Positions 4,129 to 42,868 of a stretch of 42,868 bases of DNA are shown here, in pieces. The position numbers were made by a program, and so were the translations under genes. The number at the start of each line of letters is the position of its first letter. Position 1 is the stretch's first letter. This DNA is from Anaerolineae bacterium (GTDB lineage Bacteria > Chloroflexota > Anaerolineae > B4-G1 > DUEL01). The notes under the pieces were generated by a model, which was not told where the DNA came from, ran no database searches, and worked only from the letters and a program-made list of their open reading frames with translations. The stretch spans positions 1-42,868 of the forward strand of contig JAFGOJ010000454.1 of assembly GCA_016926575.1 (NCBI GenBank), given 5' to 3'.

Positions 4129-4207
4129 CCGGCCTGCCTTTGCCAAGAAGCGAAACGGCCCTACCCCGTCCGCACCGGGCCAGTACTGGATCGCCTCGGC
4201 CAGATCC
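4129..4207 (-). repeat. Copy A: decayed comM 3'-end fragment plus a shortened R1 flank module
   Basis: 4161-4207 (ctaccccgtccgcaccgggccagtactggatcgcctcggccagatccg) aligns with 12934-12979 (ctaccccgcccgcctgggccggtactgaatggcctcggccaggtgcg). The core gggcc..cg matches at about 29/34 with one 1-nt indel. The minus-strand reading is DLAEAIQYWPG versus comM HLAEAIQYRPR. 4129-4138 ccggcctgcc and 4147-4155 gaagcgaaa match the ends of R1 (12831-12840, 12852-12860). The central ~70 nt of R1 is absent. Confidence 0.6.
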
Positions 4208-4228
4208 GTCCTGAGCGCAGCCGAAGGG
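4208..4228 (-). repeat. short GC-rich dispersed-repeat unit (CCTTCG-N5-GCTCAGGAC type)
   Basis: The reverse complement cccttcggctgcgctcaggac shares ccttcg...gctcaggac with the two in-frame copies at 32226 and 32511. It abuts the point where copy A stops matching comM. Confidence 0.45.
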
Positions 4229-4256
4229 TGAGGATGGCTCATTGGGCCTTCCCCGT

Positions 4257-4285
4257 TTGACAGCCTGCCGGAGAGCGCCTATACT
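4257..4285 (+). promoter_or_regulatory. near-consensus sigma70-type promoter for regulator 2 (TTGACA-N17-TATACT)
   Basis: ttgaca at 4257-4262, a 17-nt spacer (gcctgccggagagcgcc), and tatact at 4280-4285. It lies about 75 nt upstream of the ATG at 4362. Confidence 0.55.
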
Positions 4286-4361
4286 CTGTGCGAAGGACGA
4301 GGCACACAGCCTCAAGCGGGCTTTGCCGGAACCTCATTCGGATACAGAGACAGCGTGCTCG

Positions 4362-6287
4362 ATGACTGTGCCTTCGATCGCCGACCTGATTGACGAAAGC
4401 CTGGCCCTGGAACGAGCAGGCGAGATCGCCGCTGCCCTCGACCGGGCGCGCCAGGCGCTGGACGTGGCGCAGTCGGCGGGGGAGCCGGGAGCGGTTGCGG
4501 CAGCCCTGGTCGCCGTGGCCCGCTTTCGTTTCCGCATGGGACAGTACTCGGCGGCGCGCGCCCTGGCCGAGGAAGCGCTGGCGCTGGCCGCGTCGGAGGC
4601 TCCCGCCCGCGCCGATGCCCTGCTCATGCTGGGCATGTGCGCCGCCGAGACCGAGTCGCTGGCCGAGGCGGAGGACTATTACCGGCGTGCCGCGGACCTG
4701 GCCCGCGAGATCGGCGAACACCTGCTGCGTTTCCGCGCGCTCAACAACCTGGGAACGACGGTCTATTTCCCCCGCGGCCAGTTCGACCTGGCCCTGGCTG
4801 CCCTCCAGGAAGCACTACGCCTGGCCCGCCAGCAGGGTTGGGACGAGTGGCTGCCCTACCCCCTGCTCGGCCTTGCCTGGGTCTACCAGTTCACCGGGCA
4901 AATGCAGCGCGCCCGCGAGATGCTGGACGGAATGAAACGGGTGGCGCAAGTCGCAGCCGTGACCGAGGGGTATCACGTCAGCACGTCGGCCCAACTGGCA
5001 CTGGACGAAGCCGACCTGGAAGCGGCCCCGCCACTCTTGGCCCAGGCGCGCGCCGTGGCCGAGAGCACCGGCGATGCAGGGCTGGGTGTCGAGGCGCGAA
5101 TCATCACGAGCCGCTATCACCGCCTGACCGGCAGCGGGCCCGCCGCCCGCGACTGGGCCGACGACGCCTTGAGCATGGCCCTCCGCACCGGCTACCATCA
5201 CGAGCAGGGCCAGGCTCTCATCGAGCGCGGGCGCGCCGCCTGGGCGCTCGGCGACGGCGCAACGGCCGAAGCCGACCTGCGCGCCGCCATCGACGTTATG
5301 GCACCCCTGCCAGCGAATTTCGACATCGCCCGCGCCGCGCTCTTCCTCGCTGCCCTGCTGCACAGCCAGCGCCGGCCGGAGGCCCGCCAGGCCTGGCAGG
5401 AAGCAGCGCGGCGCGTCATCAACGGCGGCTATGCCTTCCTGCTGGAACAGGAACGAGCGCTGGCCTTTCCCCTCGTCGCGGCTCACCTGGGCGACCCCGA
5501 CCCGGAAACGGCGGCCCTGTCGGCCGCGCTGCTGACCCACCTGGAACGGGTGCCGCCGCCGCCCCTGCACGTCGTCGCCCTGGGCCGCTTCGAGGTGTGG
5601 CAGGGCGCGCGCCTTGTCCCCGAAGCAGCATGGCGTCAGCGCCGCGCCGGAGAGCTGTTCCGCCTGCTGCTGACCAGCACGCGGCGCCGCCTGTCTCGCG
5701 ACCAGGTTATCGAGGCGCTCTGGCCGGACAAGCCGCCGGGCGCGGCGAACACCCCCTTCCACCAAGCGACCTCGGCGCTGCGCCAGGCGTTGGAGCCGGA
5801 CCTGCCGGACAAGTTCCCCTCCCGCTATCTGGAGGTCGAGGGCGGGCAGGTGGCGTTGCATCTGCCGCCTGGCTCCACGATCGACCTGGACACCTTCGAG
5901 CACCACGCCCGACAGAGCGAGTGGGCGGCTGCCGCGGCGCTCTACGGGGGTGCCCTGTTCCCAGACGACCGCTATGCCGACTGGGCCGCCGAACCGCGCG
6001 AGCGGCTGGCGCAACTGTTTGTGGAAGTCGCGCTGGCGCTGGCTCGCCAGGCGCTGGAGGGCGGGCATCCTCGCGAGGCGCTGGCCTCCGCCCGCCGCGT
6101 CCTGGGAGTCGATCCCTGGCAGGAGAACGCCGTCCTGGTCGGCATGCGAGCTTGTCTGGCCCTCGAAGACCGGGTCGGCGCGCTGCGCCTCTACCGCGAC
6201 CTGGAACAGGCGCTGCGCCAGGACCTGGGCGTGGCCCCGCAGGTCGAACTGCAAGAGCTCTACCAATCCCTCGTAAGTTTTTTGTAA
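4362..6287 (+). CDS. TPR-repeat protein with C-terminal SARP-type wHTH + BTAD (reverse-order SARP regulator, no NTPase domain)
   Basis: The ORF is open from 4242, but the ATG at 4362 (MTVPSIADLIDESLALERAG) is the likely start. The N-terminal ~430 aa are TPR-like (ALLMLGMCAAETESLAEAEDYYRRAADLAREIGEH...). The C-terminus reads LHVVALGRFEVWQGARLVPEAAWRQRRAGELFRLLL...QVIEALWPD...SALRQALEP, followed by BTAD (YGGALFPDDRYADWAAEPRERL...ALRLYRDLEQALRQDLGVAPQVELQELYQSL). Confidence 0.85.
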   Translation: MTVPSIADLIDESLALERAGEIAAALDRARQALDVAQSAGEPGAVAAALVAVARFRFRMGQYSAARALAEEALALAASEAPARADALLMLGMCAAETESLAEAEDYYRRAADLAREIGEHLLRFRALNNLGTTVYFPRGQFDLALAALQEALRLARQQGWDEWLPYPLLGLAWVYQFTGQMQRAREMLDGMKRVAQVAAVTEGYHVSTSAQLALDEADLEAAPPLLAQARAVAESTGDAGLGVEARIITSRYHRLTGSGPAARDWADDALSMALRTGYHHEQGQALIERGRAAWALGDGATAEADLRAAIDVMAPLPANFDIARAALFLAALLHSQRRPEARQAWQEAARRVINGGYAFLLEQERALAFPLVAAHLGDPDPETAALSAALLTHLERVPPPPLHVVALGRFEVWQGARLVPEAAWRQRRAGELFRLLLTSTRRRLSRDQVIEALWPDKPPGAANTPFHQATSALRQALEPDLPDKFPSRYLEVEGGQVALHLPPGSTIDLDTFEHHARQSEWAAAAALYGGALFPDDRYADWAAEPRERLAQLFVEVALALARQALEGGHPREALASARRVLGVDPWQENAVLVGMRACLALEDRVGALRLYRDLEQALRQDLGVAPQVELQELYQSLVSFL

Positions 6288-6350
6288 GTCCCCGGTGCTA
6301 CACTGATCCCCAGAGTGCAGGCTGAAAGCCGAAGGGGGATCGGAAAGCCT

Positions 6351-6569
6351 ATGCGCACAACCCAAACCTTCATCCTGCGCCTGCTGGCCGACTCGGACGA
6401 GCTGGGGATGCTGCACGGGACGCTCCACGCCGTCGCCAGCGGCGAAGAGGAGCCCTTTGGCGACGCGGCGACCTTGCTGGCGCTGCTACGCCGGATGACG
6501 AGCGCCGCGCCGGGAGACACATCCCTCCGTCGAGACGAGGACGAAAAAACAAAGGAGAAAGACCTATGA
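6351..6569 (+). CDS. small hypothetical protein (72 aa), translationally coupled to the downstream secreted protein
   Basis: MRTTQTFILRLLADSDELGMLHGTLHAVASGEEEPFGDAATLLALLRRM followed by a charged tail. A G-rich SD (aaggggga) lies 11 nt upstream of the ATG at 6351. Its TGA (6567-6569) overlaps the next ATG (6566-6568) as ATGA, and the next gene's AAAGGAG SD sits in its last codons. Confidence 0.55.
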   Translation: MRTTQTFILRLLADSDELGMLHGTLHAVASGEEEPFGDAATLLALLRRMTSAAPGDTSLRRDEDEKTKEKDL

Positions 6570-7957
6570 AAACGCGACTGTCCACCCTGTTCATTGTCAT
6601 CCTGACCCTGGCCCTGCCGTCTGGTGGGGCAGCTGCCCAGAGGGCGGCCAACTGTGGGGCGAGCCGCTTCCCGATCGCTGACCTTGCCGCGACGACGCCT
6701 CGATCGCCCGGCGAGGTTGCGCCCGGCAGCGCAGCAAATGCTCCCCAGCCACAGGGGGCCGGGCTGGAATTGGGGCCGGCGCTGAACGCCGCACAGACGA
6801 TGACCTACACCGTCTACCTGCCGCTTGTGGCCCGCAACGCGGTTCCCTGTTTCCTAGACGGCTTTGCCAATCCGGGCAGCGGTTGGTACGTGGGAGCGGA
6901 CAGCGGGTGGAGCGTGAGCTACCTGAACGGCGAATACCAGATCCTGCTCACGGAAAACGATTACTGGGCCTTTGGATCGCCCTCCCAGCCGCTGCCAGAT
7001 GATTACCGCCTCGAGGTCGACGCCCGTCTGATCACCGACACCCTGGGCTCCTATGGCCTGCTTTTTGGCGCCGATGAGTTGGAAGAGACCGGATACGCCT
7101 TTGTCGTCTTTCCCACCGAACAAGCGTACGTGATCACCCGGCATAACGCCAATGGCACCTTCACAACGCTCGAAGACGAAGACTATAACCCGGTCATCAA
7201 CCCCGACACGGCCACCAACCGCCTGCGGGTCGACCGCATCGGCTCGTCAATCCACGCCTACGTCAACGACGTGCTGGTGGCGACCTGGGAGGATGACAGC
7301 TATATGGGGAGCGGGCTCACCTTTGGCCTGGCTGCCAACAGCTACGATGAGGGCGCTGTCGATGCCCGCTTCGACAACTTCTCGGCCTGCCAGGCGGCGC
7401 TGCCCGCCTGGCTCTATTCCGAGGACTTTGCCGTGGGCGGTCGATGGTATGAAGGTGACCAGGGTTGGGCGCAGTGGAGCTATCAGGGCGCCGAGTACGA
7501 GATCCTGATCCTCAATACCAATTCCTGGGCCTACTCCCAAGTGCCCCTGGAGGGCGGCCTGCCTCGCTTTGCGCTCGAGGCCGATATGCGCTTTGCCACC
7601 AGCACCTTGGGCAGCTATGGGCTCAACTTTGACCAGGTGGACGATCATCATCTTTACAGTTTCATCGTGATCCCGGGAACCCAAGAGTATGGCCTCTGGA
7701 AGTTTGACACGGACACCTGGACCGCTCTCGTCAATTGGACCACCTCGGCCTCGATCAACGCCGGCACAGCCACCAACCGGCTGCGGGTGGAGCGCGACGG
7801 GGAGCAGATCAGGCTGTACGCCAACGGCGTCCTGCTGAACAGTCTGTCGGATGCCAGCTACACGGGCAACCAGGAGATGAGCCTGTATGCCGCCTGTCAC
7901 GGCGACGCGCCCGTGGCGGCGCGCTATGACAACGTCGTCTTTGGCGAGCTGCCGTAG
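6566..7957 (+). CDS. secreted protein with two tandem ~170-aa ConA-like/LamG-like jelly-roll (lectin-fold) domains
   Basis: Signal peptide MKTRLSTLFIVILTLALPSGGAAAQ, a low-complexity linker, and a TYTVYLPLVARN motif. Two homologous units follow. One reads YLNGEYQILL...DYRLEVDARL..LGSYGLLFG...TATNRLRVDRIGSSIHAYVNDVLVA...ARFDNF. The other reads YQGAEYEILI...FALEADMRF..LGSYGLNFD...TATNRLRVERDGEQIRLYANGVLLN...ARYDNV. There is a strong SD. The fold assignment is an inference from the motif pattern. Confidence 0.8.
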   Translation: MKTRLSTLFIVILTLALPSGGAAAQRAANCGASRFPIADLAATTPRSPGEVAPGSAANAPQPQGAGLELGPALNAAQTMTYTVYLPLVARNAVPCFLDGFANPGSGWYVGADSGWSVSYLNGEYQILLTENDYWAFGSPSQPLPDDYRLEVDARLITDTLGSYGLLFGADELEETGYAFVVFPTEQAYVITRHNANGTFTTLEDEDYNPVINPDTATNRLRVDRIGSSIHAYVNDVLVATWEDDSYMGSGLTFGLAANSYDEGAVDARFDNFSACQAALPAWLYSEDFAVGGRWYEGDQGWAQWSYQGAEYEILILNTNSWAYSQVPLEGGLPRFALEADMRFATSTLGSYGLNFDQVDDHHLYSFIVIPGTQEYGLWKFDTDTWTALVNWTTSASINAGTATNRLRVERDGEQIRLYANGVLLNSLSDASYTGNQEMSLYAACHGDAPVAARYDNVVFGELP

Positions 7958-8050
7958 GCCCTGACGGCACGGGAGACGGCCGGGCGCACTCGATGTTGCC
8001 GCGGTGGAGAGCGCACGGATGAATACAGGGAATAGAAGAGGAGACAGGTT

Positions 8051-11000
8051 ATGAATACCGGACCTTTGCGCAACCCGACGTCTACCCTGCTTGTCATGGC
8101 GCTCTGCCTGACCCCTGGCATGGCGCATTCCGCAACGCAGGACGACTTGGCAGAGGGTGTCATAGAACGAATTTCCACTGCGGATATGACGCCCGACGGA
8201 TGCTATATCGAATCTCCATCGACCCTGTTGGCAAACGATCCACCCCCGATCGGGAATGACATTTTCGTGCGCGACCGCGACACGGACGGCAATGGCGTAT
8301 GCGATGAGCGCGGCGGCATCCGCACGACGCGTATCAGCCTGGGCGCCAGCGGCACCGAGCCGAACGATCTCATCCTGACCCCAGCCCCGCCAGCCGACGC
8401 GGACGCTGCCTCCCGTGGAGGGGCCTGGCCGCACAGCGGCCTTGTCGCCCCAGTGCTCCGGTCACCCAACTGGGTCGTGCTCTACGCCGCGCCAACCGCT
8501 CAGGGCAGCGGCGACTGCTCCAGTTGGGCGAACGCCTGCACCCTGCAGACCGCGCTGGGCAATGCTGCCAGCGACGACGAGATCTGGGTGCAGGCCGGTG
8601 TCCACAAGCCCACCGTCACCACCGACCGCACGATTTCCTTTACCCTCGACAGCGGCGCGTACATCTTTGGCGGTTTTGATGGCACGGAGACGAGCCTCGA
8701 CCAGCGCGATTGGCAGGCCAACGTGACGATACTCAGCGGCGACATCGACAACAACGACGTCAACACAGACGGCAACTTTATCGCCGAAACCCCGGCAGAT
8801 ATCCAGGGCAATAACAGCTACCACGTCCTGTTCACCGACACTGCGGCAGGGGGCACCGTGCTGGACGGCTTTGTCATCACCGCCGGGCAGGCCAACGGCG
8901 CCGCGAACACGGATGAAACACGCGGCGGGGGGATGTACAACCACGACAATAACCTGTGGCTGGAGAACCTCATCTTCAGCGGCAACACGGCGACTCAGTA
9001 CGGCGGTGGGATGTACAACGCGAGCACCGACTATCTGTGGCTGATGAACATCACCTTCAGTGGCAACACCGTGACAGGCAGTGGCGGTGGCGGCGGGATG
9101 CACAACCGCTACAGCAGCCCTGTGCTGGCGGGCGTCACCTTCAGCAACAGCAGCGCATCCCAGTCCAGCATGGGCGGGGGACTGGATAACCAGTTCTCCA
9201 GCAGCCCGACGCTGACGGACGTCACGTTTGTCAACAACAGCGCGGGTTGGGGCGGCGGGATGTCCAATTACAGCAACTGCCACCCCGAGCTGACGAACGC
9301 GACCTTCAGCGGCAACTCTGCGACGGGCAGCAGTGGCGGCACCGGCGGCGGGATGAACAACGCCAATTCCAGCAACCCAACGCTGACGAACGTCGTGTTC
9401 AGCGGCAATTCCGCCACCAATACAGGCGGCGGGATGAGTAATTCGGTCAGTAGCAGCCCCGAGCTGACGAACGTGGTCTTTAGCGGCAACACCGTCACGA
9501 ACTGGCACGGCGGCGGGATGGCCAACTCGAGCGGCGACCCCGTGTTGACCAACGTCCTCTTCCTCGGCAACACGACGCGGGCCGGCGGCGGCGGGATGTA
9601 CAGTCAAGGCGACTGCGTACCCGACCTTATGAACGTCACGTTCTACGGCAACAGGGTAACCCTGGCGAGCGGGCAGGGCGGCGGGTTGTATAGCGATTAC
9701 GATAGCTACACGCTGCTGACCAACGTCATCATGTGGGGCGACATCGCCCCCGCCTCGCCGGAAATCTACAACGCCAACGGCGGCACTGCCGATATCGCCT
9801 ACAGCGACATCCAGGGCTGCGGCGGCTCGGGCAGTGGTTGGGTCAGCACCTGCGGCATAGACTATGACGGCAACATCGACGCCGACCCGCGCTTCTTGGA
9901 CGCCGCCGGCGGCAACCTGCGCCTGCAATGGAACTCGCCCGCCATCGACGCCGGGAGCAACGAATGGATGCCAGCAGGCCTCCTCACCGACCTGGACGAC
10001 AACCTGCGTTTCGTCGACGTTCCCACCGCGCCCGACACCGGCTCGGGCACGCCGCCGATCGTCGACATGGGCGCCTACGAGGCCCAGGTCAACGTGGCGA
10101 TCGCCAAGGCCGTCTCACCGCCAGCCATCGCGTTAGGCGAGACGATCACCTTCACGCTGATGATTTCCAACAGCGGCAGCATCACCGCCACCAACGTGGT
10201 CGTCACCGATACCCTGCCCGCTTTCTTGGCTGGGACGGCGTTCAGCTCGAGCGTTGCCATAACCAATACCGGCTACCTGACGCCCTACGTCTGGGCGGTG
10301 CAGGACCTGGCGCCGAGGCAGGGCGGGATCATCACCGTCAGTGGCGTGCTGACCGCGCTGTCGGCGGGCGGCATCTACACCAACACCGCGACCATCGCCG
10401 ACGACAACGACAGTTGGGCCGGCGACAATACGGCCAGCGTGACCTACACCGTCGTCGTGCCCAACGTGGCCCCGACCTTCACCAGCACGCCGGTCACTAC
10501 AGCTACAGAAGACACGCTCTATACCTACGCCGTTGCCACCCAAGACGCCAACGGCGACCCGCCGGCGATCACCGCGCCGACGCGACCAGGCTGGCTGGCG
10601 CTTGCGGACCACGGCGACGGCACGGCGACCCTCTCCGGCGCGCCGGCCAACGCCGACGTCGGCGATCATGCCGTCGTCCTGCGCGTCACCGACAGCGGGG
10701 GCCTGACCGATACCCAATCGTTCACCGTCACCGTGGCCAACGTCAACGACGCGCCCTTCTTCACCAGCGCGCCGGTCACTGCCGCCGCGCAGGGCGAGCC
10801 CTACACCACCACGCTCACCGCCAGCGATGCTGACCTCGTCCACGGCGACGCACTGACCCTCACTGCCCCCACGCTGCCGCACTGGCTCACGATCACCGAC
10901 CACGGCGACGGCACTGCCATGCTCTCCGGCACGCCGGCCAAAGCCGATATGGGCGACCATGACGTCATCCTGCGCGTCACCGACAGCGGCGGGTTATTCG

Positions 11001-11194
11001 CCGAGCAGGTCTTTGTCATCACCGTAAGCAGCGACTCTTACATCTACCTGCCGCTCGTCATGAGGGAAAACACGGCAGCACAACGACCATCAGCACGGCC
11101 AGCCGCCGTTTGGCCCTGGAAGAACGTGACCGCGCTGACCGCCGTCACCGAGGGCAGCGCATCGCCGCTTGCCGGCGTCGAGGGTCAGCAATGA
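8051..11194 (+). CDS. secreted Pmp-repeat right-handed beta-helix adhesin with DUF11 and two cadherin-like/He_PIG Ig domains
   Basis: Signal peptide MNTGPLRNPTSTLLVMALCLTPGMAHSA. About 10 repeats of the polymorphic-membrane-protein type (FSGN(S/T)A..GGGM.N) lie at roughly 8920-9740. A DUF11-like segment reads VNVAIAKAVSPPAIALGETITFTLMISNSGSITATNVVVTDTLP. Two ~95-aa units end in VANVNDAP and VITV (GWLALADHGDGTATLSGAPANADVGDHAVVLRVTDSGGL and its paralogue). SYIYLPLVMRE lies near the C-terminus. Confidence 0.85.
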   Translation: MNTGPLRNPTSTLLVMALCLTPGMAHSATQDDLAEGVIERISTADMTPDGCYIESPSTLLANDPPPIGNDIFVRDRDTDGNGVCDERGGIRTTRISLGASGTEPNDLILTPAPPADADAASRGGAWPHSGLVAPVLRSPNWVVLYAAPTAQGSGDCSSWANACTLQTALGNAASDDEIWVQAGVHKPTVTTDRTISFTLDSGAYIFGGFDGTETSLDQRDWQANVTILSGDIDNNDVNTDGNFIAETPADIQGNNSYHVLFTDTAAGGTVLDGFVITAGQANGAANTDETRGGGMYNHDNNLWLENLIFSGNTATQYGGGMYNASTDYLWLMNITFSGNTVTGSGGGGGMHNRYSSPVLAGVTFSNSSASQSSMGGGLDNQFSSSPTLTDVTFVNNSAGWGGGMSNYSNCHPELTNATFSGNSATGSSGGTGGGMNNANSSNPTLTNVVFSGNSATNTGGGMSNSVSSSPELTNVVFSGNTVTNWHGGGMANSSGDPVLTNVLFLGNTTRAGGGGMYSQGDCVPDLMNVTFYGNRVTLASGQGGGLYSDYDSYTLLTNVIMWGDIAPASPEIYNANGGTADIAYSDIQGCGGSGSGWVSTCGIDYDGNIDADPRFLDAAGGNLRLQWNSPAIDAGSNEWMPAGLLTDLDDNLRFVDVPTAPDTGSGTPPIVDMGAYEAQVNVAIAKAVSPPAIALGETITFTLMISNSGSITATNVVVTDTLPAFLAGTAFSSSVAITNTGYLTPYVWAVQDLAPRQGGIITVSGVLTALSAGGIYTNTATIADDNDSWAGDNTASVTYTVVVPNVAPTFTSTPVTTATEDTLYTYAVATQDANGDPPAITAPTRPGWLALADHGDGTATLSGAPANADVGDHAVVLRVTDSGGLTDTQSFTVTVANVNDAPFFTSAPVTAAAQGEPYTTTLTASDADLVHGDALTLTAPTLPHWLTITDHGDGTAMLSGTPAKADMGDHDVILRVTDSGGLFAEQVFVITVSSDSYIYLPLVMRENTAAQRPSARPAAVWPWKNVTALTAVTEGSASPLAGVEGQQ

Positions 11195-11363
11195 CCGGCA
11201 CGGGGCCTTCGGCTGCCGCGCGGATCGACGAGGGCAAAGCCCTCGAGCTCATGGGCGGCGACGAGGGAGAAGCCTTCATTCCGAGTATGGCTGCTACGAC
11301 ACGGCGATGTTTGCCTGCAGCGTGCAGGTGGTTGGGGCCTCGCCTGAGTGGCCGACGACGAAG

Positions 11364-11476
11364 AATGAGAACTCTGGCCTGCCACAACCAGTGGGGAGCG
11401 GAAGAACCCGGTCACCGACCGGCAGTGACGTGCAGCACCGGTATCGGCGAACCCATCACAAGGGGCGGACTAAGGC
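11364..11476 (-). repeat. R1a: 113-nt direct repeat (comM-downstream terminator-like module), left flank of the ATPase cassette
   Basis: Hand alignment with 12821-12933 gives 104/113 identical with no indels. It contains the hairpin CCGGTC-ggt-GACCGG (11408-11422), followed on the minus strand by GTTCTTTCGCTT. Confidence 0.8.
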
Positions 11477-11500
11477 GATGATTCACCGGGCGTTCTCCTG

Positions 11501-12787
11501 CTAGCCCACCAGCCATTCGACCATCGAACGGGTCTCGATTGTCAGACCGTTCTCCTCAACCGCCGGCGCATTGGCATCCGTCAGGATCAACCCGTGAGAT
11601 AGCCCGAGCCCGCGCAGCGCATCTGCCAACGCCCGCACCTCTCTTTCGCGGGTGGCTGGCTGATCCAGGTTCTGCGCTACCTGGATCAACTGGCGGCTCT
11701 CCGGTAAGTAGAAATCCACTTCGTAACCTGCTGGAGAAATGCAGTAATATACCGACTGGGCCTTTCGCCGCAGCGCCAGAAAGACCATGTTTTCCAGCAG
11801 TCTGCCCGTATTGGGAGAGAATGCAAACCCGACAGCATTGGAAAGACCCGTGTCTATGCAGTACATCTTCTTGGGCGCGATCTGCTGGCGCTTGACCGAG
11901 TAGTCGTACACGTTCACCGTGAAGACTAACCAGCTGTTCTCCAGGTATTCGATATAGTTCTTGATCGTATTCACACTGCCCAGGTGAAATTGCTCCTTGA
12001 GTTTGTTGAACGAGACCTGGCAGGCCGGATTGCTCATCAGGTAGAACGCCAGCTCTTTGAGCGCGCGCACCTCTTCGATATGATACCGGGTAGCGATGTC
12101 TCGATGCAGTATATCGTCGTACAGCGTGCGCAGCAGTGGCAGCTCGGGATACTTGAGCGGTTCCGGAATGCCGCCCAGGCGCAGGTACTCACCCAGGTAT
12201 TGTTGCAACCTGGCGCGCTCTACAGTCGTCGAACGGGCCATATCCGGAAGCACATAGCCGCGGAAACGCAGAAACTCGGTGAACGAGAAGGGCAGCAACT
12301 CGATCGGCACGTATCGTCCGGTCAACCGGCTGCCCAGCTCCCGGCTGAGCAGCGAAGCGTTCGAGCCGGTGATATAGAACTTGAAGCCCATATCCATGAA
12401 GCGGCGCACCAGATGCTCCCAACCGGGGACATTCTGAACCTCGTCCACTACAAAGACCTGCCGCTCGCCAAATACCTCTACCAGGAGTTGGTACACATCG
12501 TTGGCGTCCTCAGCCTGGAAACCCAGAAATCGGTCGTCCTCGAAATTTAGGTAGTAGAACCTGTCTTCGCCCAGCCGGTGCGCCAGTTGCGCCAGCAAGG
12601 TGGACTTGCCCACCCGCCGCAGCCCGGAGACGATAACCGCATGGGGCAGCAGCGCAGCCTGCTCGATCTCTGCCAATTGCGTGCGCTCGATGCCAATATC
12701 GCGCCGCCAGAAGGCCTGGAACTGCTCCAATAGCATCGCCTTGATCTGCTCTCTCGTCCAACGGGCTTTCCATAGGTTTTCATTCAT
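11501..12787 (-). CDS. AAA-family ATPase with C-terminal DUF4143 domain (AAA_14/DUF4143 family)
   Basis: Likely start MNENLWKARW at 12787; the ORF is open to 12844, but that stretch lies in promoter/repeat sequence. Walker A is VSGLRRVGKSTLL and Walker B is VFVVDEVQ. The C-terminal region has the GYEVDFYL...LIQV signature typical of DUF4143. The gene is visibly more AT-rich than its neighbours. Confidence 0.9.
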   Translation of the reverse strand: MNENLWKARWTREQIKAMLLEQFQAFWRRDIGIERTQLAEIEQAALLPHAVIVSGLRRVGKSTLLAQLAHRLGEDRFYYLNFEDDRFLGFQAEDANDVYQLLVEVFGERQVFVVDEVQNVPGWEHLVRRFMDMGFKFYITGSNASLLSRELGSRLTGRYVPIELLPFSFTEFLRFRGYVLPDMARSTTVERARLQQYLGEYLRLGGIPEPLKYPELPLLRTLYDDILHRDIATRYHIEEVRALKELAFYLMSNPACQVSFNKLKEQFHLGSVNTIKNYIEYLENSWLVFTVNVYDYSVKRQQIAPKKMYCIDTGLSNAVGFAFSPNTGRLLENMVFLALRRKAQSVYYCISPAGYEVDFYLPESRQLIQVAQNLDQPATREREVRALADALRGLGLSHGLILTDANAPAVEENGLTIETRSMVEWLVG

Positions 12788-12793
12788 AGTGCA

Positions 12794-12822
12794 ATTATAT
12801 ACCACATAGTTTGCATTGTCAA
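12794..12822 (-). promoter_or_regulatory. perfect-consensus sigma70 promoter (TTGACA-N17-TATAAT) giving a leaderless or near-leaderless ATPase mRNA
   Basis: Minus strand reads ttgaca (12822-12817), a 17-nt spacer and tataat (12799-12794), then 6 nt (tgcact) and the ATG at 12787. The predicted TSS therefore falls at or next to the A of the start codon. Confidence 0.65.
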
Positions 12823-12933
12823 TGAAAACTCCGGCCTGCCACAACCAGCGGGAAGCGAAAGAACCCGGTCACCGACCGGCAGTGACGCGCAGCACCCATA
12901 TCGGCGAACCCATCACAAGGGGCGGACTACGGC
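12821..12933 (-). repeat. R1b: 113-nt direct repeat, right flank of the ATPase cassette, directly abutting the comM 3' remnant
   Basis: See R1a. The hairpin CCGGTC-ggt-GACCGG lies at 12865-12879 with a T-rich run downstream on the minus strand. This fits the 3' UTR/terminator of a comM-like gene whose stop codon is at 12934-12936. Confidence 0.8.
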
Positions 12934-13122
12934 CTACCCCGCCCGCCTGGGCCGGTACTGAATGGCCTCGGCCAGGTGCGGGATCTCGATGCGGGCGCTC
13001 CACCCGCACTTGGTCTTCACGCGCAGCACTTCATGGAAGTCAATGTGGTCTGGGAATGGCCTTACTCGAATTGGAGTAAGCAAGACGATCACGGCTTCAG
13101 TCATCCCTCGGAAGCACCCCAT
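12934..13122 (-). pseudogene. Copy B: orphan 3'-terminal fragment of a comM/yifB-like gene
   Basis: 12941-13001 matches 35731-35791 at 58/61. It encodes ...SARIEIPHLAEAIQYRPRRAG*, versus ...SARIEIPHLAEAIQYRPRRAS* for the intact comM. Upstream of 13002 the two sequences diverge, and the 62-aa ORF has no ATPase body. Confidence 0.75.
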
Positions 13123-13145
13123 CTACCCCATTCGGTTGCCCGCGT

Positions 13146-13174
13146 TTGACAAGCCCATGCTTTCGACCTACAAT
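13146..13174 (+). promoter_or_regulatory. near-consensus sigma70-type promoter upstream of the giant gene (TTGACA-N17-TACAAT)
   Basis: ttgaca at 13146-13151, a 17-nt spacer (agcccatgctttcgacc), and tacaat at 13169-13174. It would give a leader of about 360 nt before the ATG at 13542. Confidence 0.5.
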
Positions 13175-13541
13175 AAGACCAGACCACCCGTGACGCCCAG
13201 GCTGTGAATTCGGACGGCCGCCAACCCCTCGCGAGCCTTCCCGACGACTAGGGACATGGTCTCGCGCAGCACTCGTTGCGCCTTCAGATATGTGTGGCAG
13301 GCTATTGGCTTCAAGCGAAATGGGCGAGATGCTTGAAACAGTACCCTGTCCCCTGTTGTCAAGGAACACCGATGTGCCACAAATGCAGCGCTCAATCCGT
13401 TTCTCTCTTGCAGCCCCGCCATATCCTCTGTTCTGACCTCTATCCATTACGGCTTCCCGGTTGTCACAGGTGTGCCGTCTGTGGACGCTGCCTGGGCTCG
13501 CGCAGAGCAGGCAGGCTTGGCCCGATGACAGGAGATGTCGC

Positions 13542-28500: not shown

Positions 28501-31500
28501 ACACCTTCGCGGTAGCGGAGGACTCGGTCGGAAACACGTTGAACGTGCTGGCCAACGACGGGTTCACCGGTGGGCCATCGCTCACGATCAGCAGCGTGGG
28601 CGCGCCGATCAGCGGCACCGTCACGATCGCCGGCAGCACCGTGGTCTACACGCCCACGCTTGACTTCACCGGGGATGACGTATTCACCTACAGCGTTGCC
28701 ACTGCCGGCGGCCTCCTCGGCGACACGGCGACTATCACCGTCACGGTGGGCGGCACCAACGATCCGCCCGCGGCGCAGGACGACACCGCCACGACGAACG
28801 AGGACACCGCGGCAGCCATCAGCGTGCTGGCCAACGACTCCGATCCCGACGGCCAGACGCCGTTCTTGCTGGCGGTGGAGAACCCCACCTCGCACGGCGC
28901 TGCCGCCATCGCCGGGAACACGGTGATCTATACCCCGTCACAGGATTTCAACGGCGCGGATACCTTCGCCTACACCATCAGCGACGGCATCCTGACCGAC
29001 ACCGCCCGCATCACCGTCACCATCCAGCCGATCAACGACGCACCGCCCTTCACCACCGGCCCCGACTGGGTGGTGGCCGAAGACTGCGGCACGCAGGTCG
29101 TTCCGGCCTGGGCGACGGACATCGCGCCCGCCCCGGCGACCGCGACGGACGAAGCCGGGCAGGTGCTCACCTTCACGCTGACGAACGACAACAACGGCCT
29201 CTTCTCCGCGCAGCCCGGGTTGAGCGTCGCAGGCGTGCTCACCTTCACACCGGCCGCGAACGCCAACGGCGTCGCCAGGGTGTCGGCGACGCTCCAGGAC
29301 AGCGGCGGCACGGCCAACGGCGGGATGGATACGACGATGCAATCCTTCGTCATCACTGTCACCGCCGTCAACGATGCGCCGCAGGCCAACGACGTCACGC
29401 GGGCGACGCCGGAGGACGTACCGCTCAACATCGCCATCGTTCCCAGCCAGGTCAGCGACGTGGACGGCGACCCGCTCACGGTGAGCAGCGTCGGCGCGCC
29501 GGCCAATGGCACAGCCACGACCGACGGCAGCAACGTGGTCTATACCCCGACGCTGGACTTGAACGGCGTAGACGTGTTCACCTACACCGTGCGCGACCCC
29601 GGTGGGCTGACCGACACGGCGACCATCACCGTCACCGTCACGGAGATGAACGACCTGCCGACGCTGGACCCGCTCTCCAAGCTGACGATAGACGAGGACG
29701 CCGCGATGCAGACAGTGGGCCTGAGCGGCATCAGCAGCGGCGCGCCAGACGAGACCCAGACTTTGACTGTCACGGCTACGTCAGACGACACGGGCTTGAT
29801 CCCGCATCCCACCGTCGCCTACACGAGTCCCAACACTACTGGCGCACTCTACTTCCAGCCGGTCGCCAATGCGTTCGGCGTGGTCACGCTGGCCGTGACC
29901 GTCACCGACGGCCTCTCGCAGACCGCGTGTACGTTCCAGGTGACGGTCACGCCGGTCAACGATCCGCCGACGCTGGACGCGATCCCCGACGTAGAGGTCT
30001 ACGCCGACGCCGGCCCGCAGACGGTCAGCTTGAGCGGCATTGGCGCCGGCCCTAACGAGAGCCAAGCGTTGACCGTGACCGCTTCTTCGGGCAACGTGGG
30101 CCTGCTGCCGCACCCCACCGTCGTCTACACCAGCCCCAACCCGACCGGCAGCCTGTGGCTGTCACCGCAGTCCGGCCACGCGGGTGCGGCCACGGTGGTA
30201 GTGACTGTCACCGACGGCCTCTCGCAGACCGTGCGCTCCTTCCAGGTCACCGTCAGCCCGTTCCCGCCCCGCCCCTACGCCTACGTCGCCGACTGGACAG
30301 GCGGCCTGCGGCTGGTGGACGTTTCCACGCCCGCCAACCCGCACGCCAGCGGCGTCTACACCACGTACTCTGCCTACGACGTCGCCCTCTCCGGGCCTTA
30401 CGCTTACGTCGCCTCCGGCTACGCCGGGTTGCAGATCATAGACGTCTCCGACCCGGCCGATCCGCACAAGGTGGGCGAAGCCGGCTTCGCCGGCAATGCC
30501 CAGGGCGTGGCCGTCTCCGGCGGCACCGCCTACGTGGCAGATGGCGACCGCAACCAGTTGCGGATCGTGGACGTCTCCGATCCTACTGATCCGCACCAGA
30601 TTACCACCTACGGTACGCCGGGATACGCTTACGATGTGGCGGTCTTGGGAGGTTATGCTTACGTGGCGTGCGGCTTCCGCGGCCTTCAGGTGGTGGACGT
30701 CTCCGACCCCGCCAACCCCCACCTCGCGGGCTCACTGGGCGCATCGTCCGCTCGCGGCGTAGCGGTCTCTGGCAACCGCGTCTACCTGGCCGACGGGATC
30801 GCCGGCCTGCGCGTGGTGGACGTTTCTGTTCCCAGCAGCCCGCAACTCGTGAGCACGTTCGATACGCCAGGGAATGCGTTTGACGTGGCCGTCGCCGGGG
30901 GATTGGTCTACGTCGCCGACTATGACAAGGGCTTGCAGGTGATCAATCCCGATGGAGTCACCCCCAGCGCGACAGCGTGCGATACAGCCGGTCACTGCAC
31001 GACAGTCGCGGCCACTGCGCAGGTGCAGGGCGCCGGCCTTGAGCCACTCGCGGTGAATTTGGGCGCAGGCGCCCTTGGCCCGATGGCGCTCTCTGAATCC
31101 GGGCAGGAATGGCCGAGCGTCTCCATCGCGGGCGTTCCATCGGTGCTCGCCAGCGCCGATCCCATCTCCGTCACCGGCGAGGCCTACGTGACCACCACCT
31201 CTTCCCTGCGCGCCCTGACGGTGACGGTGGACAGTGCCCTCATCTACGTTGAGACCTGGCCCAGCGGCACCGTCACGCAGACCGTCTGGAGCGCCGACTG
31301 GATGCCGGCCGGGGAAGGGACCTATGTGTTGCAGGCGCGAGTCGTGGACGACGACGGCGGCACGGCCAGCGACACGCTCACTGTCACGGTGGATACTCAG
31401 CCTCCCACCGTCGGCATCACGCCGACACTGCTCACCTCCGCGCAGTACCACCCACCGCGCGCCATTGACATCACCGGCGTAGCCACCGACACGGGCGGCG

Positions 31501-34500
31501 TGGCATCCGTCGAGGCCACCGTGGTGCAGGACGGCGTCGCCCGCAGCGCCGTCCTCCTCGGCGGCAGCAGCCCCACCGCGACCGCCTGGGTCGCCACCTG
31601 GTACCTGGGCAGCAACCCTCTGCCCGACGGCGAGGTCTATACCATCACCGCCCGGTCGGTGGACATCGTCGGGCGCAGCACGTGGGTCACCGAACCGGTG
31701 ACGGTGGACGTGACGCCGCCCACGCCGGTCACACTGACACTGTCGGCGGCGGGCGACCGGCTGTCGCCCGGCGAAACTCTGCGCGACACGCCCGCCACGC
31801 TGACGCTGACCTGGACGCAGGCCGGCGACGGCAGCGGCGTGGCCGGCTACCTGGCGGATTGGGCCATCGCCGTGACCAACACCACGCACACCACTTCCAG
31901 CATCCCGGCCCTGGCGACTCGCATCGTCACCACCACCGCCCAGGACGGGCAGAAGGTGACGGCTTGGGTTGTCGGCGAGGACATCTATCAGAACAGGCGC
32001 TGGCAGCGCGCCGGCCCGGTCTACGTGGACGGCCCACGCACGCCCGATTACGCCATCTTGGACGATCCCGACGGCGTGTATCGCGGCTGGATGGAGAGCG
32101 GCTGCAGCCTGCTCGGCGTGGACCGCCGCGCCAGCCGCCAGGCGCAGGGCGCTGAGCAGCGCTTCTATGCCACGTGGAACGCCGAGGGACTGCGGCTGGC
32201 CTGGAACGGCGCCAATTGGGACGATCCTTCGACAGGCTCAGGACAGGCCGGCGGCGACCTGTTCGTCTACCTGGACGTGCAGGCCGGCGGCGCGATCACG
32301 GCCTATAACCCCTACAGCGATACCGCCGGCGCCGTGGTCTACCTGCCCGGCGTCACGCCAGGTTCGTCGGCGGGCGCGATGACCGCCGACTACCTGGTCT
32401 GGGTGCGTGACGCGCGGACGGCGCTGCTGATGCACTGGGACGGCAGCGCGTGGATCTCGGACACTTTGCTCCTCCCCGCGTGGTACCGCTTCGACGCCGC
32501 GCTCAGCAACCCTTCGACAGGCTCAGGGGCAGCCGGCCACACCGACCTGTACCTGCCCTTCGACCTGCTTGGCATCGCCGACCCGGCCTCGACACCGCTC
32601 AACCTGGTCGCCTTCGCCAGCGAAAATGATGCGCTGCGCCTGTGGGCGACAGCCCCCGCAGCTAACCCCGTCAACAGCAGCCGCGTGGTCGAGACGGGTG
32701 TCTTTGCGGGCGAGGAGCAGGAATTCGCCCTCACGCAGCGCTATCACTGGGACGGCCTCGGTGCGGGCGTTTGCCCCAACGGCAGCGAAGGGAGCACGCC
32801 GTTCCAGTATCCCGACACCGATCTACAGGGGCGCATCTCCGCCGATCCGGTTGGCACGGCGTACGCCTTCGTGGACGACAACCTGTTCTGGCTGTGGGAG
32901 TTGCTGCTGGGCAGCCCGCCGGCGGACATCACGTCGCTCCTAGAGCCCTTGATGAGCGCCGACCTCCCCAGGGTGGGCAACGGCCAGTTGATCAGTTACA
33001 CGATCCGCTGCCACAACCAGGGCGCCTACACGGCGACCAACGTCGTCGCGGACGTCCAGGCCTTGTACGCGCTGGCCCTCGTCGGCGGCGACCGCCAGAT
33101 CCCCCTGGGCGACATCGGGCCGGGCGAGGAAGACACGGTCACCTTCTACGGCGTGGTAGACCTGGGCCTCAGCGCGGAACCGTGGGCCGCCGTGGAGGCG
33201 CGGATCTATGACGACGCCCACGACCCGTCCGGCCAGCCGCTGGAGTGGCTGTGGGTGCACCACCCGGTGGATCGCGACGCGCCCGAGTTCTTTGGCATCC
33301 AGCAACCGCGCTATCTGATCGGGACGGGCACGACCGACCTGCGCGGCTACGCCTACGACGATTCCGGCGTGCCCACGATGACGCTCACCATCCAGTCCCC
33401 ATCCAGCCTCACTCAGACGCTCATCTGCCCAGACGCGACTGCGCAGGACGGCCAGTGGACGTGCGCCTGGGACGTGACGGCCAGCAATGGCGGCGCAGCC
33501 CCCGCTCACGGCGCGCAGTTCGACGTGCAACTCCAGGCCACAGACGGGTTGGGGCAGAGCGGCCTGGGCGACTGGCAGCCCTTCGTCGTAGACGCTATGC
33601 CGCCAGCCGTCACGCTGGACGTGGCGGCGAGTGGCGTGAGCGACGGCAGCGTCGTGCGGGACACCACCTTCACGCTGGTGGGCGACCTGCGCGACGACGG
33701 CGGCGTGCAACAGGTGGACGTGTGCCTGGGTGGCAGTTGCGGGATCGCCAGCCTGACATCGCTCCTGGCATCTGCGCCGGCGAGTTACGAGGACGCGCCA
33801 GGCGCGCCGATCGCCATCACCGGCGGCTGTTTCGAACGCTATTTCGACGTGTCGGAGGATATCGCCATCGGTTGGGCGCGGCTGGGCTTTGTCGCCGCGC
33901 ACACCCACCGCGACGACCTCCAGGTGGAACTGCGCTCGCCGCACGGCACGACTGTGCGCGTGCTTGACGACGACGCCGTCTCCGGCACCCAGCTCCAGAA
34001 CTATGACCTGCTCCTGAGCGACGCCGCGGCGAGCGCGTATGCTGCCGGCGTCGGCGACGATCCCACCTGGCCGTACTACGAGCGTCTGGCGCGGCCTAAC
34101 GCTCCGCTGCACGCCTTCCAGGGAGAGTCCTCCGCCGGGCTCTGGACGTTGCGCATCTGCGATACGGATGGAGCGGCAAACGACGGTGTCTACTACCGCA
34201 GCCTGCTGGAACTCACACCGCGCGATGCCGCGGTGCAGGCGGCGCGCTGGTCATACCGCACGCCCGCCACCGCCGACAGGTTGGATCATATCTCCCGCAC
34301 CATCGTCATCTCCGGCACGGACGCGGTGGGCAACCGCTCCGCCATCAGCCTGATGGTGTGGGTGGACAATGTCGCGCCGGTGATCACTGTAACCCAAGCG
34401 GTAGCGCGTGCTGTCGTGGGCAGCCGCGATGCCCTGATCGGTGGCGTCGCGCACGACGGCGGGCAAGTGATCGCCGTCTCCGTGATCATCGAAACCCCCG

Positions 34501-35588: not shown

Positions 35589-35723
35589 TCGGCCCACCAC
35601 GCACCAGACACCACCCGGCAAAAACATATCGCCGGCGGCGGATGCCGCGGTCGCGGCGGTTGACGTGCACCTTTCCCTTGAACATTGGCCCGCTTGCCGC
35701 AGGGTCTCGCAAGCTCTATGCGC

Positions 35724-37262
35724 CTATGATGCCCGCCGTGGCCGGTACTGAATGGCCTCGGCCAGGTGCGGAATCTCGATGCGGGCGCTCCCCGCGAGAT
35801 CCGCGATCGTGCGGGCCAGCTTGAGGATGCGGTGGAAAGCGCGCGCGCTCATCTGCAGTTGCTGCATCGCCGCCTTGATCAATCCCCGCCCAGCCTCGTC
35901 CAGGCTGCAGATCTGGCGCACTTCCGAGGGCCCCATATCGGCGTTGCACAGCAGGGGAGGTTCGCGAACCGCCCATGCCGCGAAACGCTGCCGCTGCACC
36001 TCCCGCGCCGCCTCCACCCGCGCCCGGATCGCCTCCGACGGCTCCCCAAGCCGCCCGTCGGTCAGCTTCTCATAATCCACCCGCGGCACCTCCACGTGGA
36101 TGTCGAAGCGGTCCAGCAGCGGCCCGGAGATGCGCTTCTGGTAGCGGCTGATGGCCTGCATCGAACAGGTGCATTCCCTCAACGGGTCGCCATAGTAGCC
36201 GCAGGGGCAGGGATTCAGCGCCGCCACCAGCATAAAGTTGGCCGGAAAGGTCAGCGTGCCCGAGGCACGCGCGATAGAGACCTGGTGATCCTCCAACGGC
36301 TGGCGCAGCCCTTCCAGCTCCCGCGAACCAAACTCGGGCAGCTCGTCGAGGAAGAGCACGCCCCGGTGAGCCAGGCTGATCTCGCCGGGTCGCGGCCAGT
36401 TGCCCCCACCCACCAGCCCGGCGTGGCTGATGGTGTGATGAGGCGCGCGGAAGGGACGGTGGCGGATGAGGGGGGTGTCCGGCGGCAAGAGCCCTGCCAC
36501 GCTGTAGATCTTGGTCACCTCCAGCGCCTCTTCGACCGACATCGCTGGCAGGATCGAGGGCATCGAACGGGCCAGCAGCGTCTTGCCAGCGCCAGGCGGG
36601 CCGCTCAGTAAAACGTTGTGGCCCGCGGCGGCTGCCACCTCGAGGGCGCGCTTGACGTGCTCCTGTCCCTTGATCTCGGCGAAATCCGCCGCGTAGGGCG
36701 GGAGCGGCGACGAGGCCAGGCCCTGGCCGGGGGTGTAGGGCGGGATCACGCGCAGCCCTTGCAGATGCGCCGCAAGCTGGCCCAGGTTCTCGACCGGGAT
36801 CACCTCCAACCCGTCGATCAGGGCTGCCTCGGGAGCGTCGGCGGCGGGAACGAATAAACGCCGGAGACGCTGCTGGTGGGCCAGCGCCGCGATGGGCAGG
36901 ATGCCGTTGACGTGGCACACCGAGCCGTCGAGAGAGAGCTCGCCGATGAACAACGCGCCTTCGACCTGCTGCGGCCAGGCCTGCTCCGACGCGATCATCA
37001 CCCCCACGGCAATGGGCAGATCGTAGACGGGCCCCTCCTTGCGTATGTCGGCAGGGGCCAGGTTGATGGTGATGCGCTTGTTGGGGAAAAGAAAGCCCGA
37101 GTTCCTGATGGCCGCGCGAACCCGCTCGCTGGACTCCTTGACCGCCGCGTCGGGCAGGCCGACCATGATCAACCCGGGCATGCCGCGCGCCGTGTCGACC
37201 TCCACGCTGACAAGGACGCCCTCCAGACCGACCAGGGCGCAGCTGGTGACTTTGGCAAGCAT
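35724..37262 (-). CDS. comM: YifB/ComM family Mg-chelatase-like AAA+ ATPase (competence protein ComM)
   Basis: 512 aa, beginning MLAKVTSCALVGLEGVLVSVEVDTARGMPGLIMVGLPDAAVKESSERVRAAIRNSGF...INLAPADIRKEGPVYDLPIAVGV. Walker A is LLSGPPGAGKTLLA, with GVLFLDELPEF and a C-terminal ...ARAFHRILKLARTIADLAGSARIEIPHLAEAIQYR. Confidence 0.95.
   Translation of the reverse strand: MLAKVTSCALVGLEGVLVSVEVDTARGMPGLIMVGLPDAAVKESSERVRAAIRNSGFLFPNKRITINLAPADIRKEGPVYDLPIAVGVMIASEQAWPQQVEGALFIGELSLDGSVCHVNGILPIAALAHQQRLRRLFVPAADAPEAALIDGLEVIPVENLGQLAAHLQGLRVIPPYTPGQGLASSPLPPYAADFAEIKGQEHVKRALEVAAAAGHNVLLSGPPGAGKTLLARSMPSILPAMSVEEALEVTKIYSVAGLLPPDTPLIRHRPFRAPHHTISHAGLVGGGNWPRPGEISLAHRGVLFLDELPEFGSRELEGLRQPLEDHQVSIARASGTLTFPANFMLVAALNPCPCGYYGDPLRECTCSMQAISRYQKRISGPLLDRFDIHVEVPRVDYEKLTDGRLGEPSEAIRARVEAAREVQRQRFAAWAVREPPLLCNADMGPSEVRQICSLDEAGRGLIKAAMQQLQMSARAFHRILKLARTIADLAGSARIEIPHLAEAIQYRPRRAS
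35731..35791 (-). repeat. Copy C: the 3'-terminal 61 nt of intact comM, repeated at 12941-13001
   Basis: 58/61 identity by hand alignment, in direct orientation, at an offset of exactly 22,790 nt. Confidence 0.85.
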
Positions 37263-42267: not shown

Positions 42268-42719
42268 ACTTCTTTCCCGCTGGCTGAGTACGTTACTATC
42301 TGATTTGCCTTTTTGCCCCAGTTGGTGTAAACTGGCTGAGTCTTCTCAGGAAGCGGGAGCAACGACCCGGGTGACTGAGAGGATGGTGCTACAGAATGCT
42401 AATCTGATTACCATCATGCTCATCTTTCGGTCAAATTTCTATTGCAGTCTTGAATTATCTCGCCCCTATATCCGCGGGTGATCTGAAAGTTCATCCCATA
42501 TATTGGGGGCGTTGCAATGGACCTGTTGACAATGTGCAATGATGTTTGCGTATATGACTCACGATCCCCCACTATGGGGCCGAATTCTAGGCGCAGAAAC
42601 GCGATTTGCCCCATAATTCAAGAGGTCGGTCTGAAAATGACCGAAAGGTGCGATCATGAACACAGGGCGACACAAGGTGCAGGCAGACCTTGTTGTCAGC
42701 GGCACAGGCTACATTCACT

Positions 42720-42868
42720 ATGGCTGACGAAGGAAAGCGCAAAGCTCTCGAAACGGCATTAGCCAGTCTGACCAAGCGTTATGGCGAGGGCACCGTGATG
42801 CGCCTGGGGGAGGCGACCCATCTGCAGGTCGAGACCATCCCCACCGGCGCCCTGGCCCTCGACCGCGC
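42720..42868 (+). CDS. recA: recombinase RecA, N-terminal 49 codons (runs off the right edge)
   Basis: The ATG at 42720 gives MADEGKRKALETALASLTKRYGEGTVMRLGEATHLQVETIPTGALALDR, the canonical RecA N-terminus. Confidence 0.9.
   Translation, partial: MADEGKRKALETALASLTKRYGEGTVMRLGEATHLQVETIPTGALALDR

Follow-up and report, generated by a model that had tools for sequence, protein, structure and literature searches.

Tandem accretion at the 3' end of a protein-coding gene has reportedly been described by Pavlovic, Guedon and co-workers for fda of Streptococcus thermophilus, where integrative elements of the ICESt1/ICESt3 family and integrase-less cis-mobilisable elements (CIMEs) are said to follow one another. 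At the icd gene of Escherichia coli, phage 21 and the element e14 bring a replacement 3' end with them, and the displaced original end persists as a pseudogene fragment on the far side. The gene comM itself is the target of the AbaR/Tn6022-type islands of Acinetobacter baumannii, which are Tn7-like, carry tni/tns genes and lie inside comM, where they disrupt the gene and leave a 5-bp target duplication. The ssrA-specific islands of Dehalococcoides (McMurdie et al. 2011, PMC3146451) are arranged in tandem at a conserved single-copy gene, and a direct repeat of its 3' end delimits each of them. The present analysis concerns a comM locus of an Anaerolineae bacterium at which the end of the gene occurs three times. 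The stretch of DNA analysed (the window; 42,868 nt) is the entire contig of a short-read metagenome-assembled genome (MAG) deposited at NCBI. In the window, decayed copies of the comM end bracket a 22-kb giant gene and an 8.7-kb block of regulator, adhesin and defence genes, which lie downstream of the intact comM. The reading favoured here, with a rough probability of 0.45, is that DNA was inserted serially at the end of comM, each time bringing in a replacement 3' end and displacing the old one with its terminator, by an integrase that has been lost or acts in trans. At least two such insertions, and probably three, would have taken place. The gene and the three copies of its end are located as follows.

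35724-37262, minus strand: intact comM, a YifB-family Mg-chelatase-like AAA ATPase of 512 aa, matched end to end by TIGR00368
35731-35791, minus strand: copy C, the 61-nt repeat within intact comM
12934-13001, minus strand: copy B, a putatively displaced terminus of comM comprising the stop and 21 codons, with which a 62-aa open reading frame (ORF) at 12934-13122 ends
4155-4207, minus strand: copy A, the presumed oldest comM 3'-end remnant, frameshifted, reading DLAEAIQYWPG

Positions 12941-13001 and 35731-35791 were found by a repeat finder and by BLAST to be identical at 58 of 61 positions, in direct orientation and 22,790 nt apart, just as an earlier note on this DNA had reported. The stop codons of B (12934-12936) and of comM (35724-35726) are in register at the same 22,790-nt offset, so that the orphan copy has indeed kept its stop codon in position, and the translated copy B ends in SARIEIPHLAEAIQYRPRRAG before this stop. 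The repeat had been called the last 61 nt of comM, which is not literally the case, as it stops short of the final sense codon, which encodes Ser in comM and Gly in B, and of the stop codon. A nucleotide hidden Markov model (HMM; nhmmer) built from the comM genes of 80 relatives matched copy B at E 3.4e-9. Each of the three substitutions that separate B from C is synonymous (CCA CGG to CCC AGG, and ATT to ATC). Over the same 61 nt, the comM genes of the nearest relatives are 72-79% identical to that of the window, whereas B and C are 95% identical. As far as their sequences tell, B and C are very close alleles which differ in the manner of functional genes. Differences that are exclusively synonymous fit the import of a comM allele replacing the 3' end better than the decay of a duplicate in place. 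Moreover, the identity drops at 13001/13002 from 95% over 61 nt to background, and this abrupt loss points to a recombination junction rather than to a uniformly decaying duplicate.

Both of these features speak against an alternative that is considered unlikely, namely that the cargo is native and that template switching, gene conversion or unequal exchange placed local copies of the comM end, together with the terminator-like module R1 that accompanies it, in intergenic spacers close by, or that the copies are relics of an old tandem comM duplication followed by rearrangements. In addition, no known mechanism spreads a gene end plus its terminator. The local origin is favoured by the uniform composition across the contig, by the position of every copy in an intergenic spacer and by the possibility that the terminator-like hairpins of R1 are selected at gene ends. 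Two further pieces of the window suggest, in line with it, that more than 61 nt of comM were once duplicated.

35631-35681, minus strand: fragment D, about 50 nt from mid-comM (nt 590-642, motif IKGQEHVKRALEVAAAG), lying within the 135 nt that separate the stops of comM and of the giant gene
13016-13061, minus strand: possible eroded comM block, LLDRIDIHVEVPRV region, corresponding to comM nt ~1139-1187 (nhmmer E 0.028), in frame with copy B

Fragment D aligns with comM at a score of 46, which was reached in none of 500 shuffles (maximum 30), and in about 30 relatives it matches comM at this very position. Where it departs from comM, the changes are non-synonymous. The segment 13016-13061, situated upstream in the 62-aa ORF of copy B, may be another eroded block of comM, judging by the HMM match, and no significant similarity to the window's own comM was found in it. 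The earlier statement that copy B diverges upstream of 13002 is thus right as to the sharp loss of identity and has to be qualified as to what lies beyond, where this in-frame block may continue the gene.

Copy A agrees with copy B at about 41 of 49 positions, with two 1-nt indels and the stop region CCTACCCCG common to both, and with copy C at 26 of 30. Its local alignment score against the B unit is 59, while scores elsewhere in the window do not exceed 28 and those from 2000 dinucleotide shuffles do not exceed 35; the comM HMM also matches it, at E 8.6e-4. The third, more decayed copy with the reading DLAEAIQYWPG that had been proposed is therefore real, and its similarity is significant against shuffled controls. 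Copy A is furthermore identical at 26 of 27 positions to the comM of one relative (L001). The decay is graded from A (about 84%, with indels) through B (95%) to C, which is intact. In copy A the family-consensus synonymous states GCG and ATC are found, where B and C both have GCC and ATT, which means that A predates B and C or derives from another allele; nonetheless, its stop-codon region and its R1 are shared with B. The copies of R1 are distributed as follows.

4129-4155, minus strand: R1 remnant at copy A, with the first ~27 nt of R1 kept and ~74 nt deleted, in gapped alignment to 12823-12852
11357-11476, minus strand: R1x, a second full-length R1 downstream of the ATPase gene, 92% identical to 12814-12933
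12814-12933, minus strand: R1B, just downstream of the stop codon of copy B, with terminator-like hairpins and T-rich tails on the comM strand

Taken alone, the two R1 ends that were said to survive at copy A (4129-4138 and 4147-4155) are of modest significance, since 37 of 3000 shuffles score as high (p ~0.012). The remnant is colinear with the adjacent comM remnant, and the whole A unit scores 72.5 against the B unit, compared with a shuffle maximum of 40. The full-length R1 at 12821-12933 had been located correctly, but the second full copy at 11364-11476 had been missed; these two direct repeats (92%) flank a lone ATPase gene. On the comM strand, R1 contains terminator-like hairpins followed by T-rich tails, and its overall fold is no better than that of shuffles (z -0.7 to +1.1). 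R1 is probably the old 3' untranslated region and terminator module of comM. A role of R1 as a structured RNA or attC site was rejected, given the lack of an Rfam match and the unremarkable folding. With regard to dispersed repeats or miniature inverted-repeat transposable elements, the contig contains two full copies of R1 and one remnant, and terminal inverted repeats are absent. The R1 and 61-nt repeats gave no hits in the 80 related loci, in JGI metagenome contigs or in IMG/VR; an R1 25-mer was found 0 times in JGI metagenome contigs and a comM core 29-mer 0 times in IMG/VR.

The shuffle and HMM statistics exclude chance similarity for A, B and R1. Chance, or a chimeric metagenome assembly, is very improbable as the source of the arrangement. 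A chimera may be suspected in a MAG contig built from short reads, the more so as an independent Logan assembly of SRR13394437 breaks inside identical R1 sequence on both sides of the ATPase gene. The Logan contig in question (1486 nt) is nevertheless 100% identical to 11443-12928 and thus reproduces this part of the window. Its ends inside the identical part of R1 are what a two-copy repeat produces, R1 being a branch point in the assembly graph. Moreover, a join at a shared k-mer would yield one copy and not two, and the junction between the comM end and non-comM DNA at copy B must exist in some real genome.

The gene enclosed by the two full-length copies of R1 and its promoter are these.

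11501-12787, minus strand: AAA_14/DUF4143 ATPase (PADLOC PDC-S01, E 2e-103)
12794-12822, minus strand: ATPase promoter, TTGACA, 17 nt, TATAAT, matching the consensus and lying inside a conserved palindromic operator-like sequence

From its sequence family, the ATPase is a candidate single-gene anti-phage defence protein; literature on DUF4143 is negligible. The block that is conserved with ATPase homologues elsewhere (76-78% nucleotide identity) extends from 11510 to 12829 and takes in the first ~15 nt of R1B, from which it follows that R1x carries a sliver (~15 nt) of the upstream region of the ATPase gene. A self-mobile ATPase gene with target duplications was rejected, as homologues of 75-82% identity (L082-L084) occur in varied contexts and without long flanking repeats. 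An integron cassette of the form R1-ATPase-R1 was likewise rejected, in view of the fold of R1, the missing Rfam match, the missing integrase and the homologues that lack the repeats. As a separate observation, the palindromic operator-like sequence GTTTTCATTG.CAATGAAAAC at 12790-12829, which overlaps the consensus promoter, recurs upstream of ATPase homologues of 75-82% identity in unrelated contexts (L083, 5951-6016; L084, 6046-6105).

We infer that the repeats arose by insertion and not by copying within the locus. Each incoming segment would bring its own copy of the last ~20 codons of comM, and recombination within that stretch would leave comM intact, now with the incoming allele at its end, while the previous 3' end and the terminator module R1 would be pushed outward as a dead remnant. 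Copy A, beside the AfsR/BTAD regulator, would then be the oldest end, copy B the end displaced on the arrival of the giant-gene segment, and the live gene would carry the newest one. The most likely enzyme would be a site-specific integrase recognising the comM 3' end, either lost from the islands or encoded elsewhere. The islands are best read as fossil or cis-mobilisable elements and not as carriers of a new kind of recombinase. The earlier note had considered a mobilising activity of an unrecognised kind; nothing points in that direction, since loss of the integrase, action in trans or RecA-dependent insertion suffices. The genes of the two intervals, the promoter-like sites at which these open and the regulator gene to the left of copy A, mapped with Pfam, NCBIfam and PADLOC scans, are listed below.

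768-4097, plus strand: AfsR/SARP-like regulator, domain order DNA-binding, BTAD, NB-ARC, TPR
4257-4285, plus strand: promoter-like site into regulator 2, TTGACA, 17 nt, TATACT, 11 of 12 consensus positions
~4302-6287, plus strand: regulator 2, with TPR repeats and a C-terminal BTAD domain, ORF open from 4242
6566-7957, plus strand: 463-aa protein with a weak 3-keto-disaccharide hydrolase/LamG-like match
8051-11194, plus strand: 1047-aa adhesin-like repeat protein with DUF11, He_PIG and PMP-like repeats
13146-13174, plus strand: promoter-like site into the giant gene, TTGACA, 17 nt, TACAAT, 11 of 12 consensus positions
13461-35588, plus strand: 7375-aa giant surface protein with LamG_3, TSP3, FG-GAP, cadherin-like, CARDB, LVIVD and P-domain

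Both promoter-like sites that had been pointed out, each with TTGACA and a 17-nt spacer, are present, and the true start of regulator 2 is placed after the first of them. The arms to the right of A and of B have no similarity to each other beyond the promoter hexamers. The regulators at 768-4097 and 4242-6287, both of the BTAD family, adjoin, and the second has an unusual order, with TPR at the N-terminus and BTAD at the C-terminus. The remaining genes of the contig encode a methyltransferase, two unknown proteins and a GNAT acetyltransferase, and the start of recA, a gene running off the contig, stands at the right end. Directly upstream of the recA start (about 42660-42868), a 38-nt inverted repeat pair (42421-42458/42613-42650, 154 nt between the arms) is set in a stretch of lower GC content.

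Scans of the large ORFs and of small intergenic ORFs with Pfam, NCBIfam and PHROGs returned no recombinase, transposase or excisionase domain on the contig, so that the absence of such genes, which had been claimed for the DNA between the repeats, holds for the whole 42.9 kb. Several other candidates were tried and rejected. A foreign composition of the cargo, as expected of an island, was not seen. A mosaic comM with a foreign 3' part is not indicated, the identity to relatives being equal for nt 1-1040 and nt 1041-1475. A tRNA, transfer-messenger RNA (tmRNA) or small RNA as the true target was rejected after ARAGORN found 0 genes and Rfam 0 matches at the gathering threshold.

Among 5.8 billion protein clusters, the closest ComM has 85% identity to that of the window and is found on a single contig. 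Look-ups of the exact protein sequences of ComM and of the 62-aa ORF of copy B returned no record. The 80 nearest GTDB comM loci have no synteny to the window, save for weak hints in two of them (L050 and L034), when an empty site was looked for. In L050, comM is followed after ~190 nt by a convergent gene for a 1246-aa BTAD regulator, which is 39% identical over the N-terminal 340 aa; on this weak evidence, the layout resembles the proposed ancestral state of comM and regulator. The two ORFs nearest downstream of comM in ~52 relatives represent 166 Pfam families. The C-terminus of the giant protein has best homologues of 59% identity. One of these is encoded in a more distant organism, on the JGI metagenome contig L086 (3300057013, Ga0568886_0027433; 95-2462), where its gene faces a frameshifted remnant of comM (comM nt 1061-1516) in convergent orientation, ~24 nt apart; on the other side of the remnant, the comM body is replaced by ABC-3 transporter genes. 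The sister of this contig (L085, 84% nucleotide identity) has no comM piece, and relatives closer to the window, whose loci extend 6-10 kb downstream, showed no homologue of the giant gene. Such a patchy association fits insertion better than inherited synteny. The recurrence of the adjacency in L086 is nonetheless a point in favour of native cargo, and its lack in the closer relatives a point against it.

In this phylum, comM is a genuine insertion target, at positions other than the last 20 codons that are involved in the window. IMG/VR was scanned with an alignment of the ComM C-terminus for elements that abut comM. A gene for a 618-aa large serine recombinase directly abuts a comM truncated from aa 273 (L088, 2187-4617), and PrimPol/D5-helicase prophages abut the comM fragment exactly at the CPCG codons (L087, 3990-4490; L092, 4197-4358). 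A JGI contig (L100, 17-517) comes from the same phage and also carries genes for a terminase and a ParB-methylase, and relatives of this phage have large serine recombinases beside the primase (L098, 113-1738; L099, 5045-6664). A Mu-like phage near comM (L093) was set aside as not site-specific. In a Chloroflexia MAG (L049, MFD00709.bin.2.156; 10001-13160), comM is intact, and a 1.1-kb insert separates it from a pseudogenised second copy of its 3' part (~475 nt), which begins at the PCPCGYYG codons; the insert has one ORF for a 248-aa membrane protein and no recombinase. The boundaries of the comM remnants in L049, L086 and the L087/L092/L100 group lie within 9 nt of one another at the site coding for NPCPCGYYG. 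Separately, 'mini-ComM' ORFs of 189-305 aa occur on large viral contigs of IMG/VR, where operons of small phage genes surround them (L090, 2155-2874; L091, 9713-10630; L094, 9557-10213; L096, 9839-10408). These keep the ComM blocks aa ~191-231, 348-420 and 448-506, whereas the N-terminal domain and the greater part of the AAA+ core are missing.

A number of results weigh against serial site-specific insertion. No empty or partly filled site and no excision junction is demonstrable, no relative closer than 85% in ComM being present in the searched databases, and the 98 ORFs next to the end of comM in ~52 relatives show no enrichment of any recombinase family. An integrase, which would be expected of a 3'-end island, is missing from the 42.9-kb contig, and the giant-gene interval leaves no room in which an integrase module could once have lain. 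In composition the cargo resembles its flanks, with a G+C content at third codon positions of 0.79-0.86 against 0.86 in comM and a tetranucleotide r of 0.89-0.95 with the flank. The argument from synonymous changes comprises just three substitutions, of which two are adjacent. Fragment D, beside the stop of the live comM, is not predicted and is out of order for a simple arm of an attachment (att) site. Finally, the repeat units are of three types, namely R1 with the comM end, R1 alone (at the ATPase gene) and the comM end alone, and a single att specificity therefore cannot account for all of them. The short ATPase segment is the only part of the cargo that deviates in composition, and the host-like character of the rest means that the donor was closely related or that the insertions are old. 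As a whole, the claim of successive insertions at the comM 3' end stands with respect to the repeats, their decay order and their direct orientation, and falls short with respect to an empty site, the composition and a single att core.

The heterogeneous repeat units are more naturally accounted for by the main rival explanation, a RecA-mediated Campbell-type single crossover, in which circles from close relatives integrate through the homology of the comM end, of R1 or of both; three types of unit, from 61 to ~190 nt, would then arise at one locus without a recombinase. Donor circles could form by recombination between existing direct repeats, and each event would leave a repeat of the shared length. 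The R1 pair that flanks a single 1.3-kb gene, with ~15 nt of the ATPase upstream block included in R1x, agrees with such a process, as does the ~475-nt comM duplication around the recombinase-free 1.1-kb insert of L049. The host-like composition of the cargo and the closeness of the B and C alleles likewise point to exchange among near relatives. Nevertheless, this origin is regarded as doubtful: a stretch of 61 nt that is 95% identical comes close to the minimum for efficient RecA recombination, and there is no evident reason why incoming DNA should contain just the last ~20 codons of comM unless these form a dedicated att site. Furthermore, the boundaries within 9 nt of the CPCG codons in L049, L086 and L087/L092/L100 point to site-specific events at that place.

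A related proposal, which is judged improbable, is that the giant adhesin cassette (22 kb) and the defence cassette are exchanged among related Anaerolineae as recombinase-less, repeat-flanked units at the comM end. The mover would be a chromosomal integrase acting in trans on the 61-nt comM core, or host homologous recombination alone. If it were true, the DNA adjacent to comM would be a dedicated, self-healing landing pad for flexible genes.

If serial insertion at the comM end, the preferred reading, is correct, flexible DNA docks at this end time and again in an uncultured lineage of Anaerolineae, and genes for giant surface proteins and a candidate anti-phage gene would be swapped there without disruption of comM. 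The locus would then enlarge the list of known tandem island accretions by one protein-gene target and one phylum, and it would illustrate the persistence of islands as integrase-less fossils. No new mechanism is required by the locus; its architecture is already known in kind, and its value is descriptive.

Summarizing the comparison with known systems, the feature shared with the AbaR islands is the comM/yifB family of the target gene. The analogy with AbaR that the earlier note had drawn does not hold beyond this, since AbaR is a Tn7-like insertion inside comM, whereas in the window comM is intact (512 aa), the repeats take up 61 nt close to the end of the gene, and transposase domains and transposition genes are absent. 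Like the prophages of L088 and L087/L092/L100 (with L098 and L099), the locus would present comM as an insertion target in Chloroflexota-like genomes. Those prophages, however, join comM around aa ~273 or within the CPCGYYG codons (aa ~346-354) and not in the last 20 codons; their serine integrases leave no long direct repeat, and the window is without phage genes. As with phage 21 and e14 at icd, the end of a protein gene would be replaced and the old end kept outside, although those elements encode an integrase beside the att site and none is found here. The ssrA-specific islands of Dehalococcoides share with the locus the phylum Chloroflexota, the stacking of islands and direct repeats of a gene 3' end; they target the tmRNA gene and have their own site-specific recombinases, whereas here a protein gene is involved and no recombinase is present. 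With regard to repeats, the locus has what a 3'-end island leaves, that is direct repeats of which one is the 3' end of the intact comM. Copies A, B and C all point the same way and delimit two intervals that contain no recombinase gene, which is the structure of a CIME-like array, here with repeat units that differ in extent. The fda arrays of S. thermophilus differ from this locus in their repeat of ~27 bp, against 61 nt here, and in their phylum; no cognate integrative and conjugative element or integrase is known for the locus, and its additional repeat types (R1 alone, fragment D) make one att site insufficient. Like those arrays, it would consist of serial islands with direct att-like repeats of the 3' end of a protein gene, with outer islands that carry no recombination module and a target gene kept intact through a replacement end.

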